Source: an uncultured Candidatus Saccharibacteria bacterium
GTDB lineage: Bacteria > Patescibacteriota > Minisyncoccia > Phycocordibacterales > UBA918
DNA length: 64,000 nt
Assembly (NCBI GenBank): GCA_964402035.1
Contig: CAYOAM010000002.1
Coordinates: 178,964 to 242,963 of the forward strand
Direction of reading: 5' to 3'
Shown here: in pieces, positions 2,703-54,958 of the stretch
Layout: each line of letters opens with the position of its first letter
How positions within the stretch are numbered: the first letter of the stretch is position 1
Program-made: the position numbers and the translations under genes
The notes under the pieces: model-generated
What the model was told of the DNA's origin: nothing
The model's input: the letters and a program-made list of their open reading frames with translations, nothing else
The model's database searches: none

Positions 2703-3614
2703 ATGATTCCCGGTACTATGTCACAAGGACAACAGGAAAAAACCCGTGCTGTAGAAAACTGGTGGAACACCAACCCATTTACCTACAACGGCTCGATAGG
2801 AGTTGGCAAAACGGTCGCCGTAGAAGACATGGATGTTAGTTTTTTTGATACCGCCGAAGCCCGCTACAAAAAGCACTCCGGCGGATCAACCGAAGACTCT
2901 GGAAAAGAGGTCTTTTCTAAGTTTATTGACTACCCTTCACTCAACGGGAAAAAAGTGCTTGATATAGCAACGGGCACAGGATTTTCAACGGTAACGTTTG
3001 CGCGTCACGGAGCTATCGTTACCGGTATTGATCTTACTGAGTACGCAACACGAGCAACACAACGAAATTTGGCGCTAAGAAATTTGCCAGGAACCGTTTT
3101 GCAGATGGATGCACAAAAACTTAATTTTCCTGACAATACGTTTGATTTTGTCTGTGCACATGGATGCCTCATGCATATGCCGAGCACCGCGAGTGCGGTA
3201 GCCGAAATCTATCGGGTACTAAAACCAGGTGGCACGATGTACGCATGGATGTATCACAAGGGTTGGTACTATTGGTTTAATATTCTTTTTGTACGCGGCA
3301 TACTCTGCGGAAAATTGTTTACCAACGGTTTTAGTACGCTCAAACTCACGAGTATGTATACCGATGGTGCATTTATGGGAGGCAACCCCCACACACGTCT
3401 CTATTCACGATCTGAGTTTAGAAACCTCTTTATGAAAGGCGGACTCACCAATGTCACTGTACATATCAATCACAATACGGCTGAGTGGGTATCGTGGCCG
3501 ATGGGAAAAATAGGATTTGGACATCGACTCATACCAAAAAGACTTCAGTATTTCTTGAGCGAACGTTGTGGGTTTGGTCTCGGTGCTTCTATTACTGCAA
3601 AAAAACCAGTGTGA
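2703..3614 (+). CDS. Class I SAM-dependent methyltransferase (Methyltransf_11-like)
   Basis: VLDIATGTGFSTVTFARHGAIVTGIDLTEYA is a glycine-rich SAM-binding motif I. Post I/II acidic residues are present. Confidence 0.7.
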   Translation: MIPGTMSQGQQEKTRAVENWWNTNPFTYNGSIGVGKTVAVEDMDVSFFDTAEARYKKHSGGSTEDSGKEVFSKFIDYPSLNGKKVLDIATGTGFSTVTFARHGAIVTGIDLTEYATRATQRNLALRNLPGTVLQMDAQKLNFPDNTFDFVCAHGCLMHMPSTASAVAEIYRVLKPGGTMYAWMYHKGWYYWFNILFVRGILCGKLFTNGFSTLKLTSMYTDGAFMGGNPHTRLYSRSEFRNLFMKGGLTNVTVHINHNTAEWVSWPMGKIGFGHRLIPKRLQYFLSERCGFGLGASITAKKPV

Positions 3615-3628
3615 ACTATGTAGTATCG

Positions 3629-4993
3629 CTACCAATCAATAGCGATTCGATCACCAAGTGACGGCGCTTCGGCCAGTGCATCAAGATAATCTCGTAATCG
3701 TTGCACCAAAAAGAGTGAAGCTTTTTCTTCTCCCATAGTAACGAATACTTTCTTTAATGATTTTGCTGTTCCTGCAACAAAATCAACAAGTGCTTCACGG
3801 TCGGCGTGACCTGAGTACCCTTGGATAGTTTCGATCTTTGCTCGTACCGCGACGACATGCCCATCAATAGTAACTTTTCGTGCACCATCCTGCAAAAGAC
3901 GTCCTATACTCCCCACTGTTTGGTACCCGACCAAAAGCACAGTGTTCTTTGGATCATCGAGATACATTTCTTCATGCTTTCGAATACGTCCCCCATGTGA
4001 CATCCCTGATCCTGCAATGATAATCTTTGGCCCTGGAACAGACTCAATTGCTTCAGATTCTTTCACCGATTCGGTAAAAGATAGCTTGGGAAAATCAAAA
4101 ATATCATCACCATTACTAATCTGTGTTTGTATCTCACGCTTAAGATACGTACTATGCTTGCGGTACAATTCCGTAACCTCGATAGCAAGCGGTGAATCAA
4201 GAAATGTAGGGACAGGCGCAATTTTTTTCGACTCCACAAAGTTATTAATTTCAAACAGCATGGCTTGTGTGCGCTCGAGAGAAAAAGCAGGAATAATCAG
4301 CGTGCCCTTTTTTCGTATCGTATCTTGGATGTATTGGAGCAATAGCGAGGATCGTTCTGCTACATCTTCATGCAGTCGATCACCATAGACACTCTCCATC
4401 ACCATAAACGTAGCATCGGTAGGATACTCTGGCTCATCAAGCAATGGCTGCGGCACATTGCCAATATCCCCCGAGAAAAAGAGCTTCTTGCCATCACGTA
4501 TAAACGTCACAAATGCAGAACCCAAGATATGTCCTGCATTAGAAAAGGAGACCGACATATCATCTTTAATCGCCATCGTCTCTCCGTATGTCATTACTTT
4601 CCATAGACGTAGTGCCGCATCAATATGCGCAGGCTCATAGAGTACCGGCGTCCCATACGTCCGTGCTTCGTATGACATGACATTGTATGCATCTCGCAGC
4701 ATCACTTCTGCGAGATCACGTGTTGGTGGTGTACTATAGATCACCCCTCCAAAACCATCCTTCACCAGTTTCGGTATGCGGCCAATATGGTCTGCATGTG
4801 CGTGTGTTATAAATAATATATTAACGTCCTTAGGATCATAGAGAAAATCAGCACTATTTTCATTTTGTGCAAAATGTGAACCCTGGACGAGTCCACAATC
4901 TACCAATACTTTTTGTGTTTCGGTTTCCAATAAAAAGTTGGCTCCAGTAACACTTCCTGTACCTCCATAAAAACCTAGATGTGCTGTCCGCAT
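3629..4993 (-). CDS. MBL-fold metallo-hydrolase of the beta-CASP RNA-metabolising family (RNase J/CPSF-like)
   Basis: HAHADHIG metallo-beta-lactamase motif. The 454-aa length and beta-CASP-like C-terminal half fit the family. Confidence 0.7.
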   Translation of the reverse strand: MRTAHLGFYGGTGSVTGANFLLETETQKVLVDCGLVQGSHFAQNENSADFLYDPKDVNILFITHAHADHIGRIPKLVKDGFGGVIYSTPPTRDLAEVMLRDAYNVMSYEARTYGTPVLYEPAHIDAALRLWKVMTYGETMAIKDDMSVSFSNAGHILGSAFVTFIRDGKKLFFSGDIGNVPQPLLDEPEYPTDATFMVMESVYGDRLHEDVAERSSLLLQYIQDTIRKKGTLIIPAFSLERTQAMLFEINNFVESKKIAPVPTFLDSPLAIEVTELYRKHSTYLKREIQTQISNGDDIFDFPKLSFTESVKESEAIESVPGPKIIIAGSGMSHGGRIRKHEEMYLDDPKNTVLLVGYQTVGSIGRLLQDGARKVTIDGHVVAVRAKIETIQGYSGHADREALVDFVAGTAKSLKKVFVTMGEEKASLFLVQRLRDYLDALAEAPSLGDRIAIDW

Positions 4994-4995
4994 AA

Positions 4996-5448
4996 TTAAT
5001 ATTGTTTCTTATAGAGCGTTGCGATCATGTAGCCGACCGTTCCCCCCATCAAATCAAAGACAAGATCAGAAAGTGTATCGAGTTTATAATTGACCGCATC
5101 GGCAAGTACGAACCACCATTCAAAAATCTCCCAAGCAATCCCAACAGCAAACACTACCACGAGACACATCCATATCGTTTCTACCCGAATAGGCATCACG
5201 CGCCGAAAGAGAGCAGTCTGTGTACCGAGACCGATAATAACTCCACCCAAAAAATGCATCGGTACATCAAACCACGCATAGACCCAATAGAGAGAATACA
5301 TGAGCGCAAGTTGATGCAAGAGCGCAAGTGTCGTGAGTGCTATAAAAAAAAGAATGAGTGGACTATCAAATCGCATCAGACTAGTATAGCAAAAGATACA
5401 AAAAATCCGGCCTACGCCGGATACTTTGTACGGGTCACATAGAAGCAT
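4996..5448 (-). CDS. Small polytopic membrane protein, possibly VanZ-like
   Basis: 150 aa with 4 predicted hydrophobic helices. The FDVPMHFLGG segment resembles the VanZ D-x3-H-F motif, but the family assignment is weak. Confidence 0.4.
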   Translation of the reverse strand: MLLCDPYKVSGVGRIFCIFCYTSLMRFDSPLILFFIALTTLALLHQLALMYSLYWVYAWFDVPMHFLGGVIIGLGTQTALFRRVMPIRVETIWMCLVVVFAVGIAWEIFEWWFVLADAVNYKLDTLSDLVFDLMGGTVGYMIATLYKKQY

Positions 5449-5774
5449 GTCGCCCTGAAAGTTTCAGGTGGGTGCCCTATCCAATCTGCGGCTGAAATCT
5501 CTTGCGAGTCCTCATTGGCGATTGCGAGATTAGGCTCCCTAACATTACTGTTAAGAGAAACATGCTATAAATGCAACCCTACCGATGATTATAGCAGTTT
5601 TTTCTTTCATGCAAAGTCATTCACAGCCACAGCAGAAAACAAGCACGCAACAAAACGCATTAGATGCTAGGAGATACGAGGCGCGGACGAGGAACGACGC
5701 GAGCCGTATTCAAAATACGGTGAGCTAGTCCCGGAGTCCGCAACAAAGTAGCTTCTGCAGATAATGCGTTTTGT

Positions 5775-6401
5775 CTATTCGAGGATGCCGTTCAGATCGA
5801 CATCGTATAGTATCCGTTCCTGTGCCGTCTTATAGTTAATCAATTCCTTAGCATCAAACCATACAGCGATCTCACGCTCTGCTTCGTCAGGTGACTCTGA
5901 CTGATGAACGAGATTGCGCACTGCGCGATTCTGAAATGTAGAGTGTCCATAGGAATCAACGGTGAGATCTCCACGAATCGTACCAACATCGGACGTCGCA
6001 GGCTCAGTTGAACCAACAATCTTTGATACAATCGCCACAGCTTGATTGCCTTCAACCACCATAGCAAGCACAGGGCCAGCGGTCATAAACGCAACGATAG
6101 TGTCTATAATTCCTCGGCCATATGCCATAGCATCTTTCTTTATAGGGAGACCTTGCGCCGTCAAATCTTCGATAATACGATTGCCTTTCTTAAGAAACCA
6201 CGCATCGTCTTTGTTGTAGTGTACAAGACATTGCTCGCGATTGGGTACCAAAAACTTAAAACCGACAAATTTGAGACCGGTTCGCTCAAAACGGGCAATA
6301 ATCTCGCCAATTAGCCCACGCTGTACGCCGTCAGGTTTGATGATGACCAAAGTGCGCTCTTGGTGCATACCGGGCTTTCGCATTGAAATTTCATTACTCA
6401 T
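5775..6401 (-). CDS. ndk: Nucleoside diphosphate kinase
   Basis: RTLVIIKPDGVQRGLIGEIIARFERTGLKFVGFKF is the canonical NDK N-terminal region. The active-site His region is present. Confidence 0.85.
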   Translation of the reverse strand: MSNEISMRKPGMHQERTLVIIKPDGVQRGLIGEIIARFERTGLKFVGFKFLVPNREQCLVHYNKDDAWFLKKGNRIIEDLTAQGLPIKKDAMAYGRGIIDTIVAFMTAGPVLAMVVEGNQAVAIVSKIVGSTEPATSDVGTIRGDLTVDSYGHSTFQNRAVRNLVHQSESPDEAEREIAVWFDAKELINYKTAQERILYDVDLNGILE

Positions 6402-42511: not shown

Positions 42512-42622
42512 AGTATTGCGCCCATACTACAACAAATAGACCAAGAAACAAGTCACGTAAATCAAGTGTCGTCAAATATCTTACACTGTATTTCACGGGT
42601 TATACTGATAGTAAACACCTCT

Positions 42623-42670
42623 ATGAGAAAGAAAATACTATTCGTCATAACAAAGTCGAACTGTCGGGGT
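42623..42670 (+). pseudogene. Duplicated fragment of the 5' end of the downstream GT4 gene
   Basis: atgagaaagaaaatactattcgtcataacaaagtcgaactgtcgggg versus atgaaaaagaaaatactatttgtaattacaaagagcaactggggcgg at 42829. Translations are MRKKILFVITKSNCRG versus MKKKILFVITKSNWGG. Confidence 0.5.
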
Positions 42671-42828
42671 AAAGAAGTGACGGGCTGGACATGCTGGGAG
42701 CATGTCCAGGACCTGGCGAGATTTTTGAATAAAAATCCGCGAGGTATACTGCCTCTGTAAGAGGCACTTCTTTACAAAACAGCGCCCCAGTACCTCCAAC
42801 AACAAACCATGGCTATACAAGCGATCAA

Positions 42829-43971
42829 ATGAAAAAGAAAATACTATTTGTAATTACAAAGAGCAACTGGGGCGGCGCCCAGCGCTATGTATTTGATATG
42901 GCAACTGGCCTCGCTCAAAACTATGACGTTTCTGTTGCACTTGGTGGCGAAGGACGACTGGCAGACATGTTGCGCGGTCAAAATATCTCGGTGATACAAA
43001 TCCCCCACTTACAGCGCGATATTAGTATCAAAGAAGAGTGGCGAGCGGCACGCGAATTATTTAAGATATTCCGCAGTGTACGCCCCGATATCGTCCACCT
43101 CAACAGTTCAAAAGCAGCTGGCATCGGGACACTTGTTGCGCGAATCGCACGCGTCCCCCACATCGTCTTTACAGCCCATGCATGGGCGTGGAATGAAGAC
43201 CGACCACTCCACGCACGCATAGCGATTGGACTCTTGCATTGGCTCACCGTACGCTTTGCACACCGAACGATCACAGTTTCACATGCGGTCTACGATCAGA
43301 TGGCTCGCCTACCATTTACCAAACGACGTATGCGCGTGGTGCATCTAGGCATTGCCCCACTTCCACGCATTTCACGCGCCGAAGCACGCGCACGTATGCT
43401 TGAGATATTACCGACCTTAAAAGCAAAAAAGGACGCGGTTTGGATCACCTCAATTGGTGAACTGCATCCCATTAAAGGTTTTAGGTACGCCATCGATGCC
43501 GTGAGTACACACATGCGCGCGCGCCCCGCTGACACGTGCGCGTACATTATTATCGGTGAAGGTGAAGAGCGGTTGCATCTTGAAAAGCGCATACAGGAGC
43601 AGAAACTTTCCGATAGTGTCTTTTTGGCAGGACAGGTGAGTGACGCTGCAGTACTGCTCGCTGCATTCGATATCATGCTCACTCCCTCGCTCTCCGAAGC
43701 GTTTGGTTATGTGGTTCTCGAGGCAGGTGCTGCAAACATACCCATTATTGCAAGCAACGTAGGTGGCATTCCTGAAATTATAGGCAGCGATGGTGGCATG
43801 CTCGTGCCGCCAAGAGATTCTGCTGCCATTGCTGAAGGACTCAACGAACTCATTACTAAACCTTCGCACGGCAGTTCACTCACGCTTTCACTCCATGAAA
43901 AAGTAATGGCCTATTTTACCAGGTCTCGCATGATTGATGAGACAAAGGAGATCTATGACTCATTCGATTAA
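42829..43971 (+). CDS. Glycosyltransferase family 4
   Basis: EAFGYVVLEAGAANIPIIASNVGGIPEII is the GT4 C-terminal motif (E-x7-E). Confidence 0.85.
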   Translation: MKKKILFVITKSNWGGAQRYVFDMATGLAQNYDVSVALGGEGRLADMLRGQNISVIQIPHLQRDISIKEEWRAARELFKIFRSVRPDIVHLNSSKAAGIGTLVARIARVPHIVFTAHAWAWNEDRPLHARIAIGLLHWLTVRFAHRTITVSHAVYDQMARLPFTKRRMRVVHLGIAPLPRISRAEARARMLEILPTLKAKKDAVWITSIGELHPIKGFRYAIDAVSTHMRARPADTCAYIIIGEGEERLHLEKRIQEQKLSDSVFLAGQVSDAAVLLAAFDIMLTPSLSEAFGYVVLEAGAANIPIIASNVGGIPEIIGSDGGMLVPPRDSAAIAEGLNELITKPSHGSSLTLSLHEKVMAYFTRSRMIDETKEIYDSFD

Positions 43972-45080: not shown

Positions 45081-46511
45081 TTATCTGCCATCGTTGAGAT
45101 CCCCAATAACTTTAGGGACAATGTCAATAACAGCGGGACCATCTTCACAAATCGCGGTACTGATTGATCGATAGATAGCGTCAAGAGACTTCGTATCTGA
45201 TGCAAGATAGCGCAAAGCAGGATCTGTGGCGAGTTCCGTCAAGAACTCCTTGTTAAGGTTGCTGCCAAGCCCGATCGTGAAGACCGTAATACCTGATCGC
45301 TTTGCCGCATCAGCAGCCGTGCGAGCGTACGCTTCACCATCTTCCCCTGGCTCATTTGCTTTTCCATCAGTAAAAAGTACCAGTACCTTCCTGCCGTCTG
45401 CATTGTGTCGGATGGTAGAAAATTCGGTTGTAGCTTGTATGATCGCATCGCCAATATTGGTGCCTCCCCGTTCATCTTTTGGATTGATGCGTAAATTGGT
45501 GATAGCGATACCCATCGCTGTTATATCTTTTGAGAGCGGACGCGCGAGCGCAGCGTTGGTAGCAAACGTGACAACGCCAAGCTGATCACCACTTCGCAAT
45601 CGACCACCAAACGCCGACGCGGCCGTCAAAACTGACGTCACCGGTTGTGGTGGCGTGCCTCCATCATCATTCATGCTTCCTGAGAGATCAATTGCGAGAA
45701 TCACATCTGACGGCACCTCACAACTACGCAATGTTTTCGCAATCGGTTCTGGCCACGAAAACGTCACTTTCTTTTCGACACGCGCTTGGAAAAGCGGTAC
45801 TACCGTGCGCGACGCGGTGAGCGCTGTCCCCTTCGCGTCAAAAATTGTTGCGACAACTTCAACATCTCGCGCGTCTTCAATAGTAGTGTTTTGAATCATT
45901 GCATCCAAGCGTGGCTTACTATCCACGCCTGACAACGCACGATTGGTAATCGTAAACTGATCACGCGCATTTGCAAACGCCTCCCACGCTGGATTTGGCG
46001 TTAGCGTAATAAATGTTTTTATTGGTATTCGATCCCCCGTCTCAATACGCCCTTCGAAAATAGGGTACACACTATCGGGTGGCAAAAAAGTAATACCCCT
46101 TTTTTCAGTGATCACATCCCCTTCCTCGTCGAGGAGCGTAAACGTATACTGCAACGATTTTGTGCCCACAACCTTATTTTGATTTTCAACATACGCTACG
46201 GCATTATAGATTCCTTTTGAAATTTCAAATGATCGACTCCAACGCACCGTTGGTTCAAGTACATCAAAGGGACAAATGAGCACACAGGCACCACCACAAT
46301 CGACGCCACGTTCATCACCGTTGTGTCGTCCATCAAAGCACGTAGGCGATTGATAGAAGAGCATGAAATACAGACCCGTGAGACATACAGCTCCAAACAC
46401 CGATACACCGGTTGCATACTGCACACGTCTCCAAAAAGCCCACGGTCGAAACATATAGAGACATTGTAGCAAAGAAAAAGCCCGTAGGGGGAACCTACAG
46501 GCAAATAACAA
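45081..46511 (-). CDS. Membrane-anchored von Willebrand factor type A domain protein
   Basis: N-terminal TM helix. The VWA MIDAS motif is DLSGSMNDDGG ... VLVLFTDGKANEP. Confidence 0.75.
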   Translation of the reverse strand: MLFACRFPLRAFSLLQCLYMFRPWAFWRRVQYATGVSVFGAVCLTGLYFMLFYQSPTCFDGRHNGDERGVDCGGACVLICPFDVLEPTVRWSRSFEISKGIYNAVAYVENQNKVVGTKSLQYTFTLLDEEGDVITEKRGITFLPPDSVYPIFEGRIETGDRIPIKTFITLTPNPAWEAFANARDQFTITNRALSGVDSKPRLDAMIQNTTIEDARDVEVVATIFDAKGTALTASRTVVPLFQARVEKKVTFSWPEPIAKTLRSCEVPSDVILAIDLSGSMNDDGGTPPQPVTSVLTAASAFGGRLRSGDQLGVVTFATNAALARPLSKDITAMGIAITNLRINPKDERGGTNIGDAIIQATTEFSTIRHNADGRKVLVLFTDGKANEPGEDGEAYARTAADAAKRSGITVFTIGLGSNLNKEFLTELATDPALRYLASDTKSLDAIYRSISTAICEDGPAVIDIVPKVIGDLNDGR

Positions 46512-46802
46512 AAACAGAGAGCGCTGTCGAGAGAACAGCGACAGCCTTGGAAAGACCTAAGAGGTACTTTCCGTCACCGCCAAACAGGAAATCTGCCAGT
46601 AGTTTGCGCATGGAAACCTCACACAACCTTTGAAAACTGTTTTATTTTAGCACCTATGAACGACTCCGTCATCAGCAAATTTTATGGCTCAAAGTATGGT
46701 TAAAATATTGTTGCTCTTCACCAATACAAAAAAGCGGTCCTTAGACCACTTTCTCGATACCATAGCTTTTTTTAAAATGTACCGGAGAAAATTGAATGCT
46801 CT

Positions 46803-47050
46803 AACCTGGCGACTACCTACTCCTCTTACAGAGGCTGTACGCCTTGTCGACATTTTATTTCGGCGTAGCCTCATAAATTGTCTGGCAAGGCCTTGCGAAA
46901 GCACCCCATGCTTTCTCTCCCCTTGCGGAGTACCATCGGCTCAAGTGGGCTGAAGGCGAGCTTGCGCAGCCTTCAGGGCCGGAGTCTTTTTTAGACGAGG
47001 CGGGGTCGCGCACATGTGCCTGTGGCCATGATGCGTGACTAACTTCCGCA
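46803..47050 (-). pseudogene. 5S rRNA-derived partial copy. It lacks the first ~45 nt and is interrupted by two insertions of about 90 bp each.
   Basis: Minus strand: GCGGAAGTT-[ins]-AGCCCACTTGAGCCGATGGTACTCCGCAAGGGGAGAGA-[ins]-GAGGAGTAGGTAGTCGCCAGG. It matches the intact 5S at 47071-47177. Confidence 0.6.
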
Positions 47051-47070
47051 ACAAAAATAAAATCCTGTAA

Positions 47071-47177
47071 TCTGGCGACTACCTACTCTCCCCCTTGCGG
47101 AGTACCATCGGCTCAAGTGGGCTTAACTTCCGTGTTCGGAATGAGAACGGGTGTGACCCCACCGACAAATCACCAGA
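47071..47177 (-). rRNA. rrf: 5S rRNA, intact copy (about 107 nt)
   Basis: TCTGGTGATTTGTCGGTGGGGTCACACCCGTTCTCATTCCGAACACGGAAGTTAAGCCCACTTGAGCCGATGGTACTCCGCAAGGGGGAGAGTAGGTAGTCGCCAGA aligns with bacterial 5S. It is flanked by an 18-bp inverted repeat, ttacaRgattttattttt. Confidence 0.85.
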
Positions 47178-47663
47178 TTACAAGATTTTATTTTTGATGA
47201 TCATCTAATGATCGGCTGAGAACGTGGTACGGTAGCTCCCCGCGCTACCGTACCCCCTCCGACAAATCACCAGATGAGAACATTCAATTTTTGGTACGCT
47301 ACGTGGTTAAAAACCGCTCGCATACAAATTCATATCATATAAGCTTCTACTCCGCAAAACATTTTCAAAAACTAACGCAATGTTCGCATTCCGCGCCACA
47401 TAACAGTCTCTGTTATACAACTCAAAATACTGCGATGTGCAATATTCCTTGCCTTTCAAAGTTTTTCTTTGAAAGCCTTGGCAGTTTAGCATGACACTAA
47501 ACATCACTTATGTAACGCACACAAGCGTACTGCGATGTGCAATATTCCTTACAGGAACACATTCTATTAGTACACCTCGGCTCCACGCATTTCGGCGCTT
47601 CCACCTGGTGCCTATCAACCTGATAATCTCTCAGGGAATTTAATGATTCTTAATCTTAGAGCT

Positions 47664-47696
<33 letters not shown>

Positions 47697-47840
47697 ATTC
47701 CGAACATAGCTACAGGGCGGTGCCGTTGGCACGACAGCCCTCAGACCAGAGGTTCGTTCATTCCGGTCCTCTCGTACTAGGAACAAATCTCCTCAAGAAT
47801 CGACGCCTGCAGTAGATAGGAGACCAACCTGTCTCACGCA

Positions 47841-48105
47841 TCTTGGCTCTCACATTACTGTGAGGATTGGACTATATCTTCTTCCAAACAATTTGGAAGG
47901 TTGACGTTTAGTCTCTACGGGTGCTTATGGGCTTCCCTCGGTATTACCCTTTAACCAAAAAATAAATGGCTAAATTGGGTTCTTCCGATATAGTCAACTT
48001 TACTACAGAACATTGCTGTTCTGTGCCGCCGTACTGATGTCTTTTCGAATATAAGTGGTCACATATATTCTCCCCGGGTTTAGATTGGTTCAGGCAACGA
48101 ATTAC
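47841..48105 (-). mobile_element. 23S intron at the GAACG|GTGAGACAG junction (about 265 bp, no ORF)
   Basis: Exons are colinear with E. coli 23S near 2590-2600. The intron ends in G. Its 3' domain is homologous to the 16S introns. Confidence 0.65.
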
Positions 48106-54784: not shown

Positions 54785-54924
54785 TCTCTAATTATACATC
54801 ACACAGATTTATAAAGTCACCTTCGCTTCCCCCCGTAAAATTGTTTCCCAAACAATTTTACCTAAGCATAATTCTTGTTACACAGAATTCTGCTGAGTGC
54901 TGTCGGGCCGGTCTCAACACGTCA

Positions 54925-54958
54925 TAAGAAAAACAGTCCCCCGGACTGTTTTTCTTTG
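54925..54958. terminator. Palindromic terminator downstream of rplL
   Basis: gaaaaacagtcccccggactgtttttc. Confidence 0.65.

Follow-up and report, generated by a model that had tools for sequence, protein, structure and literature searches.

The window, as we call the whole 64,000-nucleotide (nt) stretch of DNA analysed here, is part of a 461.7-kb metagenome contig (ENA ERZ3430527, NODE_4) and contains three pieces derived from 5S ribosomal RNA (rRNA). Judged from their sequence, these pieces are better read as two units, an intact inner gene and a split outer copy that encloses it. One 5S unit sits within another at the 3' end of a minus-strand 23S–5S operon. The inner unit (47196→47052) would be the working gene, with a 19-bp stem of the type used for cutting the 5S precursor, and the outer unit (47299→46779) a second 5S copy, with the inner cassette apparently splitting its helix III/loop C arm. 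We favour the reading that the outer copy is a co-transcribed, non-functional 5S copy kept like the inner gene by gene conversion, and give it a probability of about one half.

Anatomy of the nested 5S unit

The inner gene is recognised by the Rfam 5S covariance model (RF00001) far above its gathering score of 38 (E 6e-16), and it is the sole 5S match in 46300–47700, even at E≤10. The initial annotation had placed an intact gene at 47071–47177 within an 18-bp inverted repeat and had proposed a check with the 5S model. That check confirms the gene, one nucleotide longer, and all 19 of the 19 flank positions pair. Together with helix I, the flanks make an inverted repeat of 30 nt with 90% complementarity (47049–47078 / 47170–47199). 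The gene has the short helix IV reported for Parcubacteria, and short 5S rRNAs have been described in the Candidate Phyla Radiation (CPR) (PMC9297842). In relatives each intact 5S has its own flanking stem, whose sequence differs between genomes, and a role of the inner repeat as a processing stem is plausible and fits the relatives.

Read 5' to 3' on the RNA strand, the outer unit begins with its own stem strand, nt 1–21 of 5S, a GC hairpin and nt 26–45. There follow the inner stem, the intact 5S and the second strand of the inner stem. The outer copy then resumes with nt 46–54, an 87-nt insert, nt 55–90, a 94-nt insert and nt 90–107, and the unit closes with the other strand of the outer stem and a terminator-like hairpin (Table 1). 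The outer copy is therefore interrupted four times, by the 29-nt GC hairpin, by the cassette with the intact 5S, by the 87-nt insert, and by the 94-nt insert, which is a copy of a dispersed repeat that we call type A. A spliced alignment of the intact gene with its surroundings scored 137 in the window, compared with 26–55 from chance chaining at loci without such copies. In this alignment the upstream part (nt 1–45) and the downstream part (nt 46–106) are complementary. Together the pieces make up about 100 of the 108 5S positions, with neither overlap nor gap and with the break at 45|46. The first piece is identical to the inner gene at 20 of its 21 positions (U17 is replaced by A), the piece of nt 55–90 is one G short in a G-run, and the stem of the GC hairpin is a perfect 11 bp (47226–47236 / 47244–47254). 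Repeat matches of 33/33, 19/19 and 20/21, together with the z-score of the fold given below, exclude chance. The RF00001 model gives no match to the outer unit in 46300–47700 even at E≤10, since the pieces lie too far apart for it.

The initial annotation had described the upstream fragment as the first 16 nt of 5S joined to a GC-rich hairpin. This description stands and can be widened to nt 1–21 and a perfect hairpin, but the diverged nt 26–45 had been missed. The downstream segment does lack the first ~45 nt, resuming at nt 46, and its two insertions of about 90 bp correspond to those of 87 and 94 nt. The view of the locus as three separate nested remnants does not hold, because the halves abut at 45|46 and the flanks pair with one another.

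The pairing of the outer flanks is seen as an inverted repeat (46788–46812 / 47267–47291; 25 nt, 84% complementary) with 454 nt between its arms. The duplex of 47275–47299 with 46779–46803 has an energy of -21.6 kcal/mol, compared with -5.4 ± 2.2 for shuffled sequences, and 16 of 19 positions of the stem pair. Cross-pairing of outer with inner flanks is weaker (-11.6 and -1.9 kcal/mol). The outer flanks are also homologous to the inner ones, at 85–86% identity (85% in direct repeat D1, 86% in D3). Over the first 17 positions the two stems differ at five places on the 5' side and at four on the 3' side. Each of the four 3'-side changes faces a changed position on the 5' side and compensates for it (G-C to C-G, C-G to G-C, A-U to G-C, A-U to U-A), which leaves one change uncompensated. 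A hypergeometric estimate for this coincidence of positions gives p ~0.002 over 17 positions and 0.017 over 19. In the minimum free energy (MFE) fold of the 508-nt unit (-219 kcal/mol, z = -9.2), the outer stem and outer helix I close the unit, and the inner stem, inner helix I and the inserts lie inside.

The first terminator-like signal past the nested unit is a hairpin with a U-run, on which a weak Rfam alignment of STnc50 also falls. A scan for consensus terminators gave nothing in the stretch from the inner 5S to the outer 3' half, and did not list the 46749–46728 hairpin either. At E≤10 the Rfam scan of 46300–47700 returned, besides the intact 5S and the end of the 23S, three chance-level matches only. 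The 87-nt insert has no Rfam match except one chance-level hit (17.5 bits, E 2.6). A search with nhmmer found no other copy of it in the window or the fetched loci described below, and it is unique to this genome; nor did nhmmer find further copies of the 23S–5S spacer, the hairpin region or a 77-nt insert of that spacer.

Table 1. Features of the nested 5S unit, segments of the spliced alignment, and other RNA features of the window
Feature	Position	Strand	Evidence or remark
Outer unit 5' flank (CAAAAAUUGAAUGUUCUCA + GUACC extension), outer stem 5' strand	47275–47299	-	Inverted repeat I2
Outer 5S nt 1–21 (helix I 5' strand, loop A, helix II 5' strand)	47254–47274	-	Direct repeat D1, blastn, spliced alignment
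GC-rich hairpin at outer loop B (GGUACGGUAGC-GCGGGGA-GCUACCGUACC)	47226–47254	-	Inverted repeat I3
Outer 5S nt 26–45, diverged (helix III 5' strand, loop C; CACGUUCUCAGCCGAUCA)	47209–47228	-	Spliced alignment, 17/19 identical
Small palindrome (GAUCAUUAGAUGAUC) between outer copy and inner cassette	47193–47208	-	Inverted repeat I8; hairpin in MFE fold
Inner flanking stem, 5' strand	47178–47196	-	Inverted repeat I1; 19/19 pair with 47052–47070
Intact 5S rRNA gene, 108 nt, short helix IV	47070–47177	-	Rfam RF00001, 82.2 bits, full model 1–120
Inner flanking stem, 3' strand	47052–47069	-	Inverted repeat and pairing count
Outer 5S nt 46–54 (CGGAAGUUA)	47040–47048	-	Spliced alignment 9/9; picks up exactly at the end of the upstream half
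GC-rich 87-nt insert, several hairpins; 3' side of loop B (helix III bulge region)	46953–47039	-	Sequence
Outer 5S ~nt 55–90 (helix II 3' strand, helix IV/V)	46917–46952	-	Direct repeat D2, 36 nt, 97%
Type A copy in helix IV/V 3' strand	46823–46916	-	Model R1 match 46820–46923, 87.5 bits, E 2e-20
Outer 5S ~nt 90–107 (GAGUAGGUAGUCGCCAGG; helix I 3' strand)	46805–46822	-	Direct repeat D3; spliced alignment 19/19
Outer unit 3' flank, outer stem 3' strand	46779–46804	-	Inverted repeat, MFE fold, duplex energy, pairing count
Terminator-like hairpin and U-run (GUGGUCUAAGGACCGC UUUUUU)	46728–46749	-	Read from the sequence
Spliced alignment, 5S nt 1–25	47274–47250		22/25
Spliced alignment, 5S nt 26–45	47228–47209		17/19, diverged
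Spliced alignment, 5S nt 46–54	47048–47040		9/9
Spliced alignment, 5S nt 55–87	46951–46919		33/33
Spliced alignment, 5S nt 88–106	46825–46806		19/19
23S rRNA	51448→47546	-	Rfam; group I intron at 47848–48091, further insertions
16S rRNA	34526→31846	-	Rfam; group I intron at 33768–34048, further insertions
tRNA-Ile	29381→29309	-
Second type A copy, outside 5S context	42680–42766	+	R1, 62 bits, E 1.5e-13

The nested layout in related genomes

A gene for a VWA-domain protein lies downstream of the 5S and is syntenic in relatives; homologues of this protein are labelled Kaiserbacteria, Paceibacteria or "Patescibacteria group", which places the window organism in the Patescibacteria. Using this synteny we fetched 80 loci from species-representative genomes and three from other assemblies (L numbers below), which are only ~70–80% identical to one another in DNA. 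Extra 5S-like pieces that rise above the bulk of the background in the spliced alignment occur at about 14 of the 57 loci with an intact 5S. The comparison with relatives that the initial annotation had suggested recovers the same nest in four of them, L002 (GCA_019745315), L077, L062 and L084, each with the 5' part of the outer copy upstream and the 3' part downstream of a stem-bearing intact gene. L025 probably has it as well. The point at which the halves abut differs from genome to genome, being 33|34 in L002, 27|28 in L077, 35|36 in L062 and 37|38 in L084. In L002, L077 and L062 the outer flanks pair (-10.6, -11.1 and -10.4 kcal/mol) with sequences unrelated to those of the window; these flanks likewise bear no relation to the inner flanks of their own genome, but each matches its partner by complementarity. 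In L084 the pairing is weak.

Other layouts are found at further loci. L012, L034, L046 and L086 have the 5' half only, and L010 has the 5' half with a short remnant of the 3' half. In L018, L052, L076 and L033, and as a third copy in L077, an insertion-bearing 5S copy stands in tandem downstream, and L085 and L057 have a simple 5S gene. In L010, L012, L025 and L062 a terminator-like hairpin stands past the inner cassette but before the site of the outer 3' half; in L002 and L077, as in the window, such a hairpin comes after the entire unit, and the stretch from the inner gene to the outer 3' half has none. In a neighbour-joining tree built from the VWA protein, the layout states are patchy within the main clade, where they form local clusters, and none occurs in the basal group. 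A metagenome scan with 5S nt 1–21 gave four loci, none from a close relative of the window organism; three are simple 5S genes of other Patescibacteria and one is an unrelated coding sequence.

Three of the fetched loci show further peculiarities. The third 5S-like copy of L077 (2640–2935) follows the nested pair and has two inserts and its own terminator-like hairpin. L018 (900–1200) apparently has an extra degraded copy, which is oppositely oriented and separates the intact gene from the interrupted copy in tandem. In L004 (Kaiserbacteria) the 23S model match stops 2.3 kb before the 5S (3511–5869), and two LAGLIDADG open reading frames (ORFs) lie in between (3679–4293 and 4811–5290). These would be either part of unrecognised introns in the 23S 3' region or homing-endonuclease genes in the 23S–5S spacer.

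Origin and fate of the outer copy

The exact abutment of the two halves, at differing positions across genomes, points to a stem-bounded cassette lodged inside a 5S gene that was once complete. The ends of the cassette coincide with the base of the processing-type stem. How it entered is a matter of speculation, for instance as a captured copy of a processed precursor or as a DNA fragment bounded by a cruciform. After the split, the outer copy would have gained the hairpin, the unique 87-nt insert and one type A copy. This history agrees with the initial annotation in that repeated insertion and recombination have shaped the locus: the type A insert is a dispersed element, and the intact gene with its stem behaves like a cassette.

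We infer that transcription of the rRNA operon runs on through the entire nested unit as its tail, since no terminator-like signal is seen other than the one behind the unit. The inner 5S would be freed by cleavage at its own stem, and the outer halves would give no ribosomal 5S and so form a split pseudogene, although the outer closing stem may still act as the outermost processing helix. The outer pieces share lineage-specific 5S variants with the inner gene of the same genome, as in the helix II strands of the window and L002, and this identity to the genome's own inner gene points to concerted evolution. Near-identity of this kind is best explained by gene conversion, which would act in short patches to hold the outer pieces close to the working gene. 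The nest itself may persist since recombination between repeats that deleted either half would leave the working gene with mismatched flanks.

That the outer copy is non-functional is suggested by its damage in the window, by its loss or half-loss in relatives, by its patchy distribution on the VWA tree and by the internal terminator-like hairpins of L010, L012, L025 and L062. With the inserts removed, up to 30 of the 32 5S pairs can form, a count that is optimistic as it comes from an alignment of short pieces. Helix II has an A·A mismatch at pair 17/60, helix III has lost 2 nt, and loop C reads GCCGAUCA rather than UUCCGAACA. Folding of hand-spliced outer copies tells little here, as the MFE structure does not fully give the 5S consensus even for intact genes.

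Several observations weigh against a decaying pseudogene. Although their sequences are unrelated, the outer stems of the window, L002, L077 and L062 have stayed complementary, where a neutral stem should decay. In L002 the outer copy has none of the 32 canonical 5S pairs broken and still keeps 104 of 108 positions. The interruptions lie in loop B (nt 21–25), in the helix III arm (45|46, or loop C at 33–37 in relatives), at nt 50–54 in the helix III bulge and at nt 87–90 in the 3' strand of helix IV. These are the expansion regions of functional expanded 5S rRNAs, and the "least obstructed" 5S sites 34–37 and 52–53 are among the matched regions (PMC7812874). Such a match would be expected if the outer copy was under selection when the inserts came. 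Gene conversion, for its part, would have to be inferred over pieces of only 9–36 nt. The retained stem pairing and the permissive sites are poorly explained by a non-functional copy, and they keep a functional reading alive.

In that functional reading, which we hold to be unlikely, the outer unit is a 5S-type RNA that is expanded or in fragments, or else a scaffold produced along with the inner 5S. Its inserts would be tolerated expansion modules and its outer stem a required element of processing or assembly. The coincidence with permissive sites favours it, as do the folding of the inserts as self-contained hairpins in the MFE structure, the outer stems that are complementary in four genomes with unrelated sequences and show compensatory changes in the window, the 32/32 pairs of L002, and the terminator-like hairpin that in the window, L002 and L077 appears only past the whole unit. 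It is opposed by the broken helix II pair, short helix III and diverged loop C of the window copy, by the loss or half-loss of the architecture in many relatives, and by the terminator-like hairpin within the unit in several of them. Type A, moreover, is inserted in either orientation at the same 5S sites, and the outer RNA would be severed by the release of the inner 5S.

Taken further, the nested unit could be a functional design of a Patescibacteria clade, in which one transcript yields an inner 5S of the normal kind together with a 5S-derived outer RNA that is oversized or in two pieces. We regard this as quite improbable. Were it true, the outer stem and the expansion modules, type A among them, would act in 5S processing or assembly or in a variant ribosome component, and type A would be a new class of structured RNA and not a DNA repeat.

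Alternatively, the two outer fragments could stem from separate partial tandem duplications, one of the 5' flank with the 5' part and one of the 3' part with the 3' flank, followed by insertions. Such an origin accounts for the homology of both outer flanks of the window with the inner ones. It also fits L034, where the upstream fragment has nearly the 5' flank of the intact gene, and L086, where a bare 5' fragment immediately precedes that gene. Insertion-linked duplications do occur here, as the exact 23-nt repeat around a 77-nt insert after the 23S shows. Independent events would not, however, be expected to leave halves that abut exactly, in the window (45|46) and at other positions in at least four relatives. 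Nor would they give the outer flanks of L002, L077 and L062, which are unrelated to the inner ones and mutually complementary, and the four compensatory stem differences need flanks that evolved or were inherited as a pair. We think this origin rather unlikely, and prefer a stem-bounded cassette in a once-complete gene.

An intron-containing 5S gene, from which hairpin, cassette, 87-nt insert and type A copy would be removed and the pieces joined to a second 5S, had been offered in the initial annotation and has very little to recommend it now. CPR 16S and 23S genes are rich in insertions (PMC11270868), the 16S and 23S of the window both have group I introns, and the outer pieces add up to an almost complete 5S. 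Against this, no group I or group II intron was found in 46300–47700 at E≤10 with Rfam, whose intron matches are confined to the 16S and 23S, and inserts of 29–94 nt are far below the 253 positions of the group I model. Removing the inserts does not restore the exact 5S sequence, the junctions read by eye being 1–3 nt off, as at the site of type A in the window and likewise in L018 and L062. Type A also occurs in both orientations and in intergenic DNA outside 5S, the conserved loop C sequence is lost in the outer copy of the window, and an intact 5S is present.

An assembly artefact, in which repeats of a single 5S were mis-joined, might be suspected of a short-read metagenome assembly (ENA ERZ3430527) with identical repeats of 20–36 nt, but it is ruled out for practical purposes by the same architecture in independent assemblies of different studies (GCA_019745315, L002; JACKGG01, L077; UBA6201, L062; JBGSYZ01, L084), and it is further opposed by repeats below typical assembly k-mers with unique sequence between them, by the structured, compensatory differences between outer and inner flanks, and by the neighbouring protein on five contigs from NCBI, ENA and Logan (at the protein level only).

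Three other origins were considered and set aside. Triplication followed by deletion is rejected on the exact abutment of the halves, and Campbell-type integration of a circular copy because it would yield tandem and not nested copies. A scar of site-specific integration, as at tRNA genes, would leave 3' partial copies only.

Known systems, the type A repeat and the surrounding locus

The closest known cases are insertion-bearing 5S remnants at the ends of rRNA operons in Peptococcaceae and Pseudoalteromonas. Such remnants lie downstream of normal genes, behind terminators, in Peptococcaceae and Pseudoalteromonadaceae (Stepanov & Fox 2021, PMC7812874). Like the outer copy, they are 5S-like, have large insertions in the core, stand beside a normal 5S at the operon end, sometimes in several copies, occur together with an intact gene and probably have no function. 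The tandem copies of L018, L052, L076 and L033 and the third copy of L077 fit them closely, and L018, L033 and L052 show the full pattern of a downstream, terminator-preceded remnant without one or both terminal parts. The window unit does not: its outer copy has both termini, which flank the intact gene and pair with each other, the units have no terminator between them, and the hosts are Patescibacteria.

Expanded 5S rRNAs, for example in Halococcus morrhuae and Thermoanaerobacterium, carry one to three self-folding inserts of 13–109 nt (PMC7812874). The inserts of 29, 87 and 94 nt and their sites fall within the same ranges, and expanded 5S can likewise coexist with normal 5S genes. Here, in contrast, there are four interruptions in all, one of which is a complete 5S gene with its stem (~160 nt), the core is damaged in helix II, helix III and loop C, and the outer copy is not the only 5S of the cell.

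A looser likeness exists to twintrons, where a structured, stem-bounded unit is likewise enclosed by another of its kind; the comparison is no more than an analogy, as no splicing is known here and the nested units are stable-RNA genes. Brown et al. 2015 reportedly described insertion sequences and introns in CPR 16S and 23S rRNA genes. The insertions surveyed by Tsurumaki et al. 2024 (PMC11270868) share the organisms and the tendency of rRNA genes to take up insertions. They are at least 100 bp long, many are group I introns or encode LAGLIDADG proteins, and they interrupt the only gene copy, unlike the 5S inserts here, which are shorter, belong to no intron family and lie in a redundant copy. 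That survey found no insertion of ≥100 bp in 645 CPR 5S genes with a standard covariance model, which finds the intact copy only.

PMC7812874 describes no nest in which the outer flanks pair and the units lack an intervening terminator, and full-text literature searching gave no other report of one. What is new is the nesting itself, its occurrence in a CPR host, and the type A repeat. The 5S region of CPR, reported to be insertion-free, is also a site of insertion and duplication. For annotation, this means that 5S-like pieces and a "spacer" of ~400 bp at CPR 5S genes should not be taken for separate pseudogenes or assembly errors. The nest is a natural test case for concerted evolution and for the survival of essential single-copy RNA genes under insertion in tiny genomes.

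Type A is a compact element of three hairpins. An alignment of 17 copies shows conserved linkers (GGGUGAGA, GCAAGA and UGNACAG) and a conserved loop (UGUAA), and 17 of its 18 pairs have compensatory changes. Of the alignment cells, 90.9% are paired, compared with 32–45% in controls with slid partners, and none of 500 shuffles reached the observed values. The pairs are ~96% Watson-Crick, with 20 G·U against 8 A·C, counts that favour neither an RNA nor a DNA role. A covariance model of the element, R1, gave 48 matches at E<1e-6 in 662 kb of related DNA, on both strands, many of them several kb from any 5S. At 5S-like copies the element occurs in either orientation and recurs at nt 21–25 and 87–90. 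No match to it exists in Rfam 15, and an Rfam scan of 42560–42860, around the second copy in the window, was empty. The flanks of 40 copies showed no terminal inverted repeats or target duplications; no search for a transposase was made.

Repetitive extragenic palindromes and bacterial interspersed mosaic elements (REP/BIME) and MITEs (miniature transposable elements with inverted repeats), which are small palindromic repeats dispersed in bacterial genomes, resemble type A in several ways. Type A is ~90 nt long, non-coding, multi-copy, mostly intergenic, present in both orientations and rich in Watson-Crick hairpins, and it can sit in the hairpin of another copy (42,66x–42,78x). It differs from them in the apparent lack of terminal inverted repeats and target duplications and in combining three hairpins with conserved single-stranded linkers (GUGAGA, GCAAGA, UGNACAG, loop UGUAA), a combination that looks more like a functional RNA motif. 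With its strong covariation, its dozens of copies and no Rfam entry, type A merits study of its own, be it as a mobile DNA repeat or as an RNA motif.

The second type A copy of the window lies ~60 nt upstream of a glycosyltransferase ORF (42829–43971). It stands inside the loop of a further hairpin (GTAAAGAAGTG ... CACTTCTTTAC; flanks 42665–42790) that resembles the first hairpin of type A, so that one repeat looks nested in another. Type A matches in L012, L038, L075 and L057 are placed 3.9–4.6 kb downstream from where the VWA gene starts and share their strand with the copy at 42680–42766; they may mark the same intergenic region. A weak type A-like match (24 bits, E 0.002) lies at 28984–29101 on the minus strand, ~200 nt downstream of tRNA-Ile. 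L010 (560–637) and L034 (2181–2258) have a short variant without the long middle hairpin. By eye these two differ at ~5 of 72 positions, in genomes otherwise ~72% identical where alignable, which suggests constraint or recent transfer.

The other insertion sites of the outer copy are occupied differently across genomes. At the site of the GC hairpin (47226–47254), L002, L077 and L084 have hairpins with other stems and UGGGG or UGGGA loops, and by its sequence the loop-B hairpin resembles a lone first hairpin of type A. At nt 50–54, where the window has its unrelated 87-nt insert, relatives hold a conserved element of ~70 nt. This family, here "type B" (...ACTTTC..TGCTCGGAAATGTAAGTGAACTTCCATTTCACTCAC..CTCGAAAGCC), was located in the interrupted copies of L018 (1425–1496), L052 (541–610), L084 (1262–1330), L062 (3421–3489), L025 (3477–3552) and L077 (2804–2880).

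All rRNA genes of the window are on the minus strand. The 16S and 23S are unlinked, 13 kb apart with protein-coding ORFs in between, and the 16S gene spans 2.7 kb, its retained match being to the archaeal small-subunit model. In the 23S–5S spacer an exact 23-nt direct repeat (TACTGCGATGTGCAATATTCCTT, plus strand) at 47428–47450 and 47528–47550 brackets the 77-nt insert (47451–47527). The second copy of the repeat overlaps the 23S 3' end and trailer, and the 77-nt insert has no other copy in the fetched DNA. From its sequence, this arrangement looks like an insertion with a long target duplication. After the L7/L12 gene, also on the minus strand, there is a hairpin with a G-rich loop at ~54932–54957 (AAAAACAGUCC-GGGG-GACUGUUUUU) and another hairpin at ~54838–54866 (GGUAAAAUUGUU-UGGGA-AACAAUUUUAC). 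Both are of the same type as the GC hairpin of the outer 5S copy, and the G-rich loop seems to be a general trait of intergenic hairpins in these genomes.

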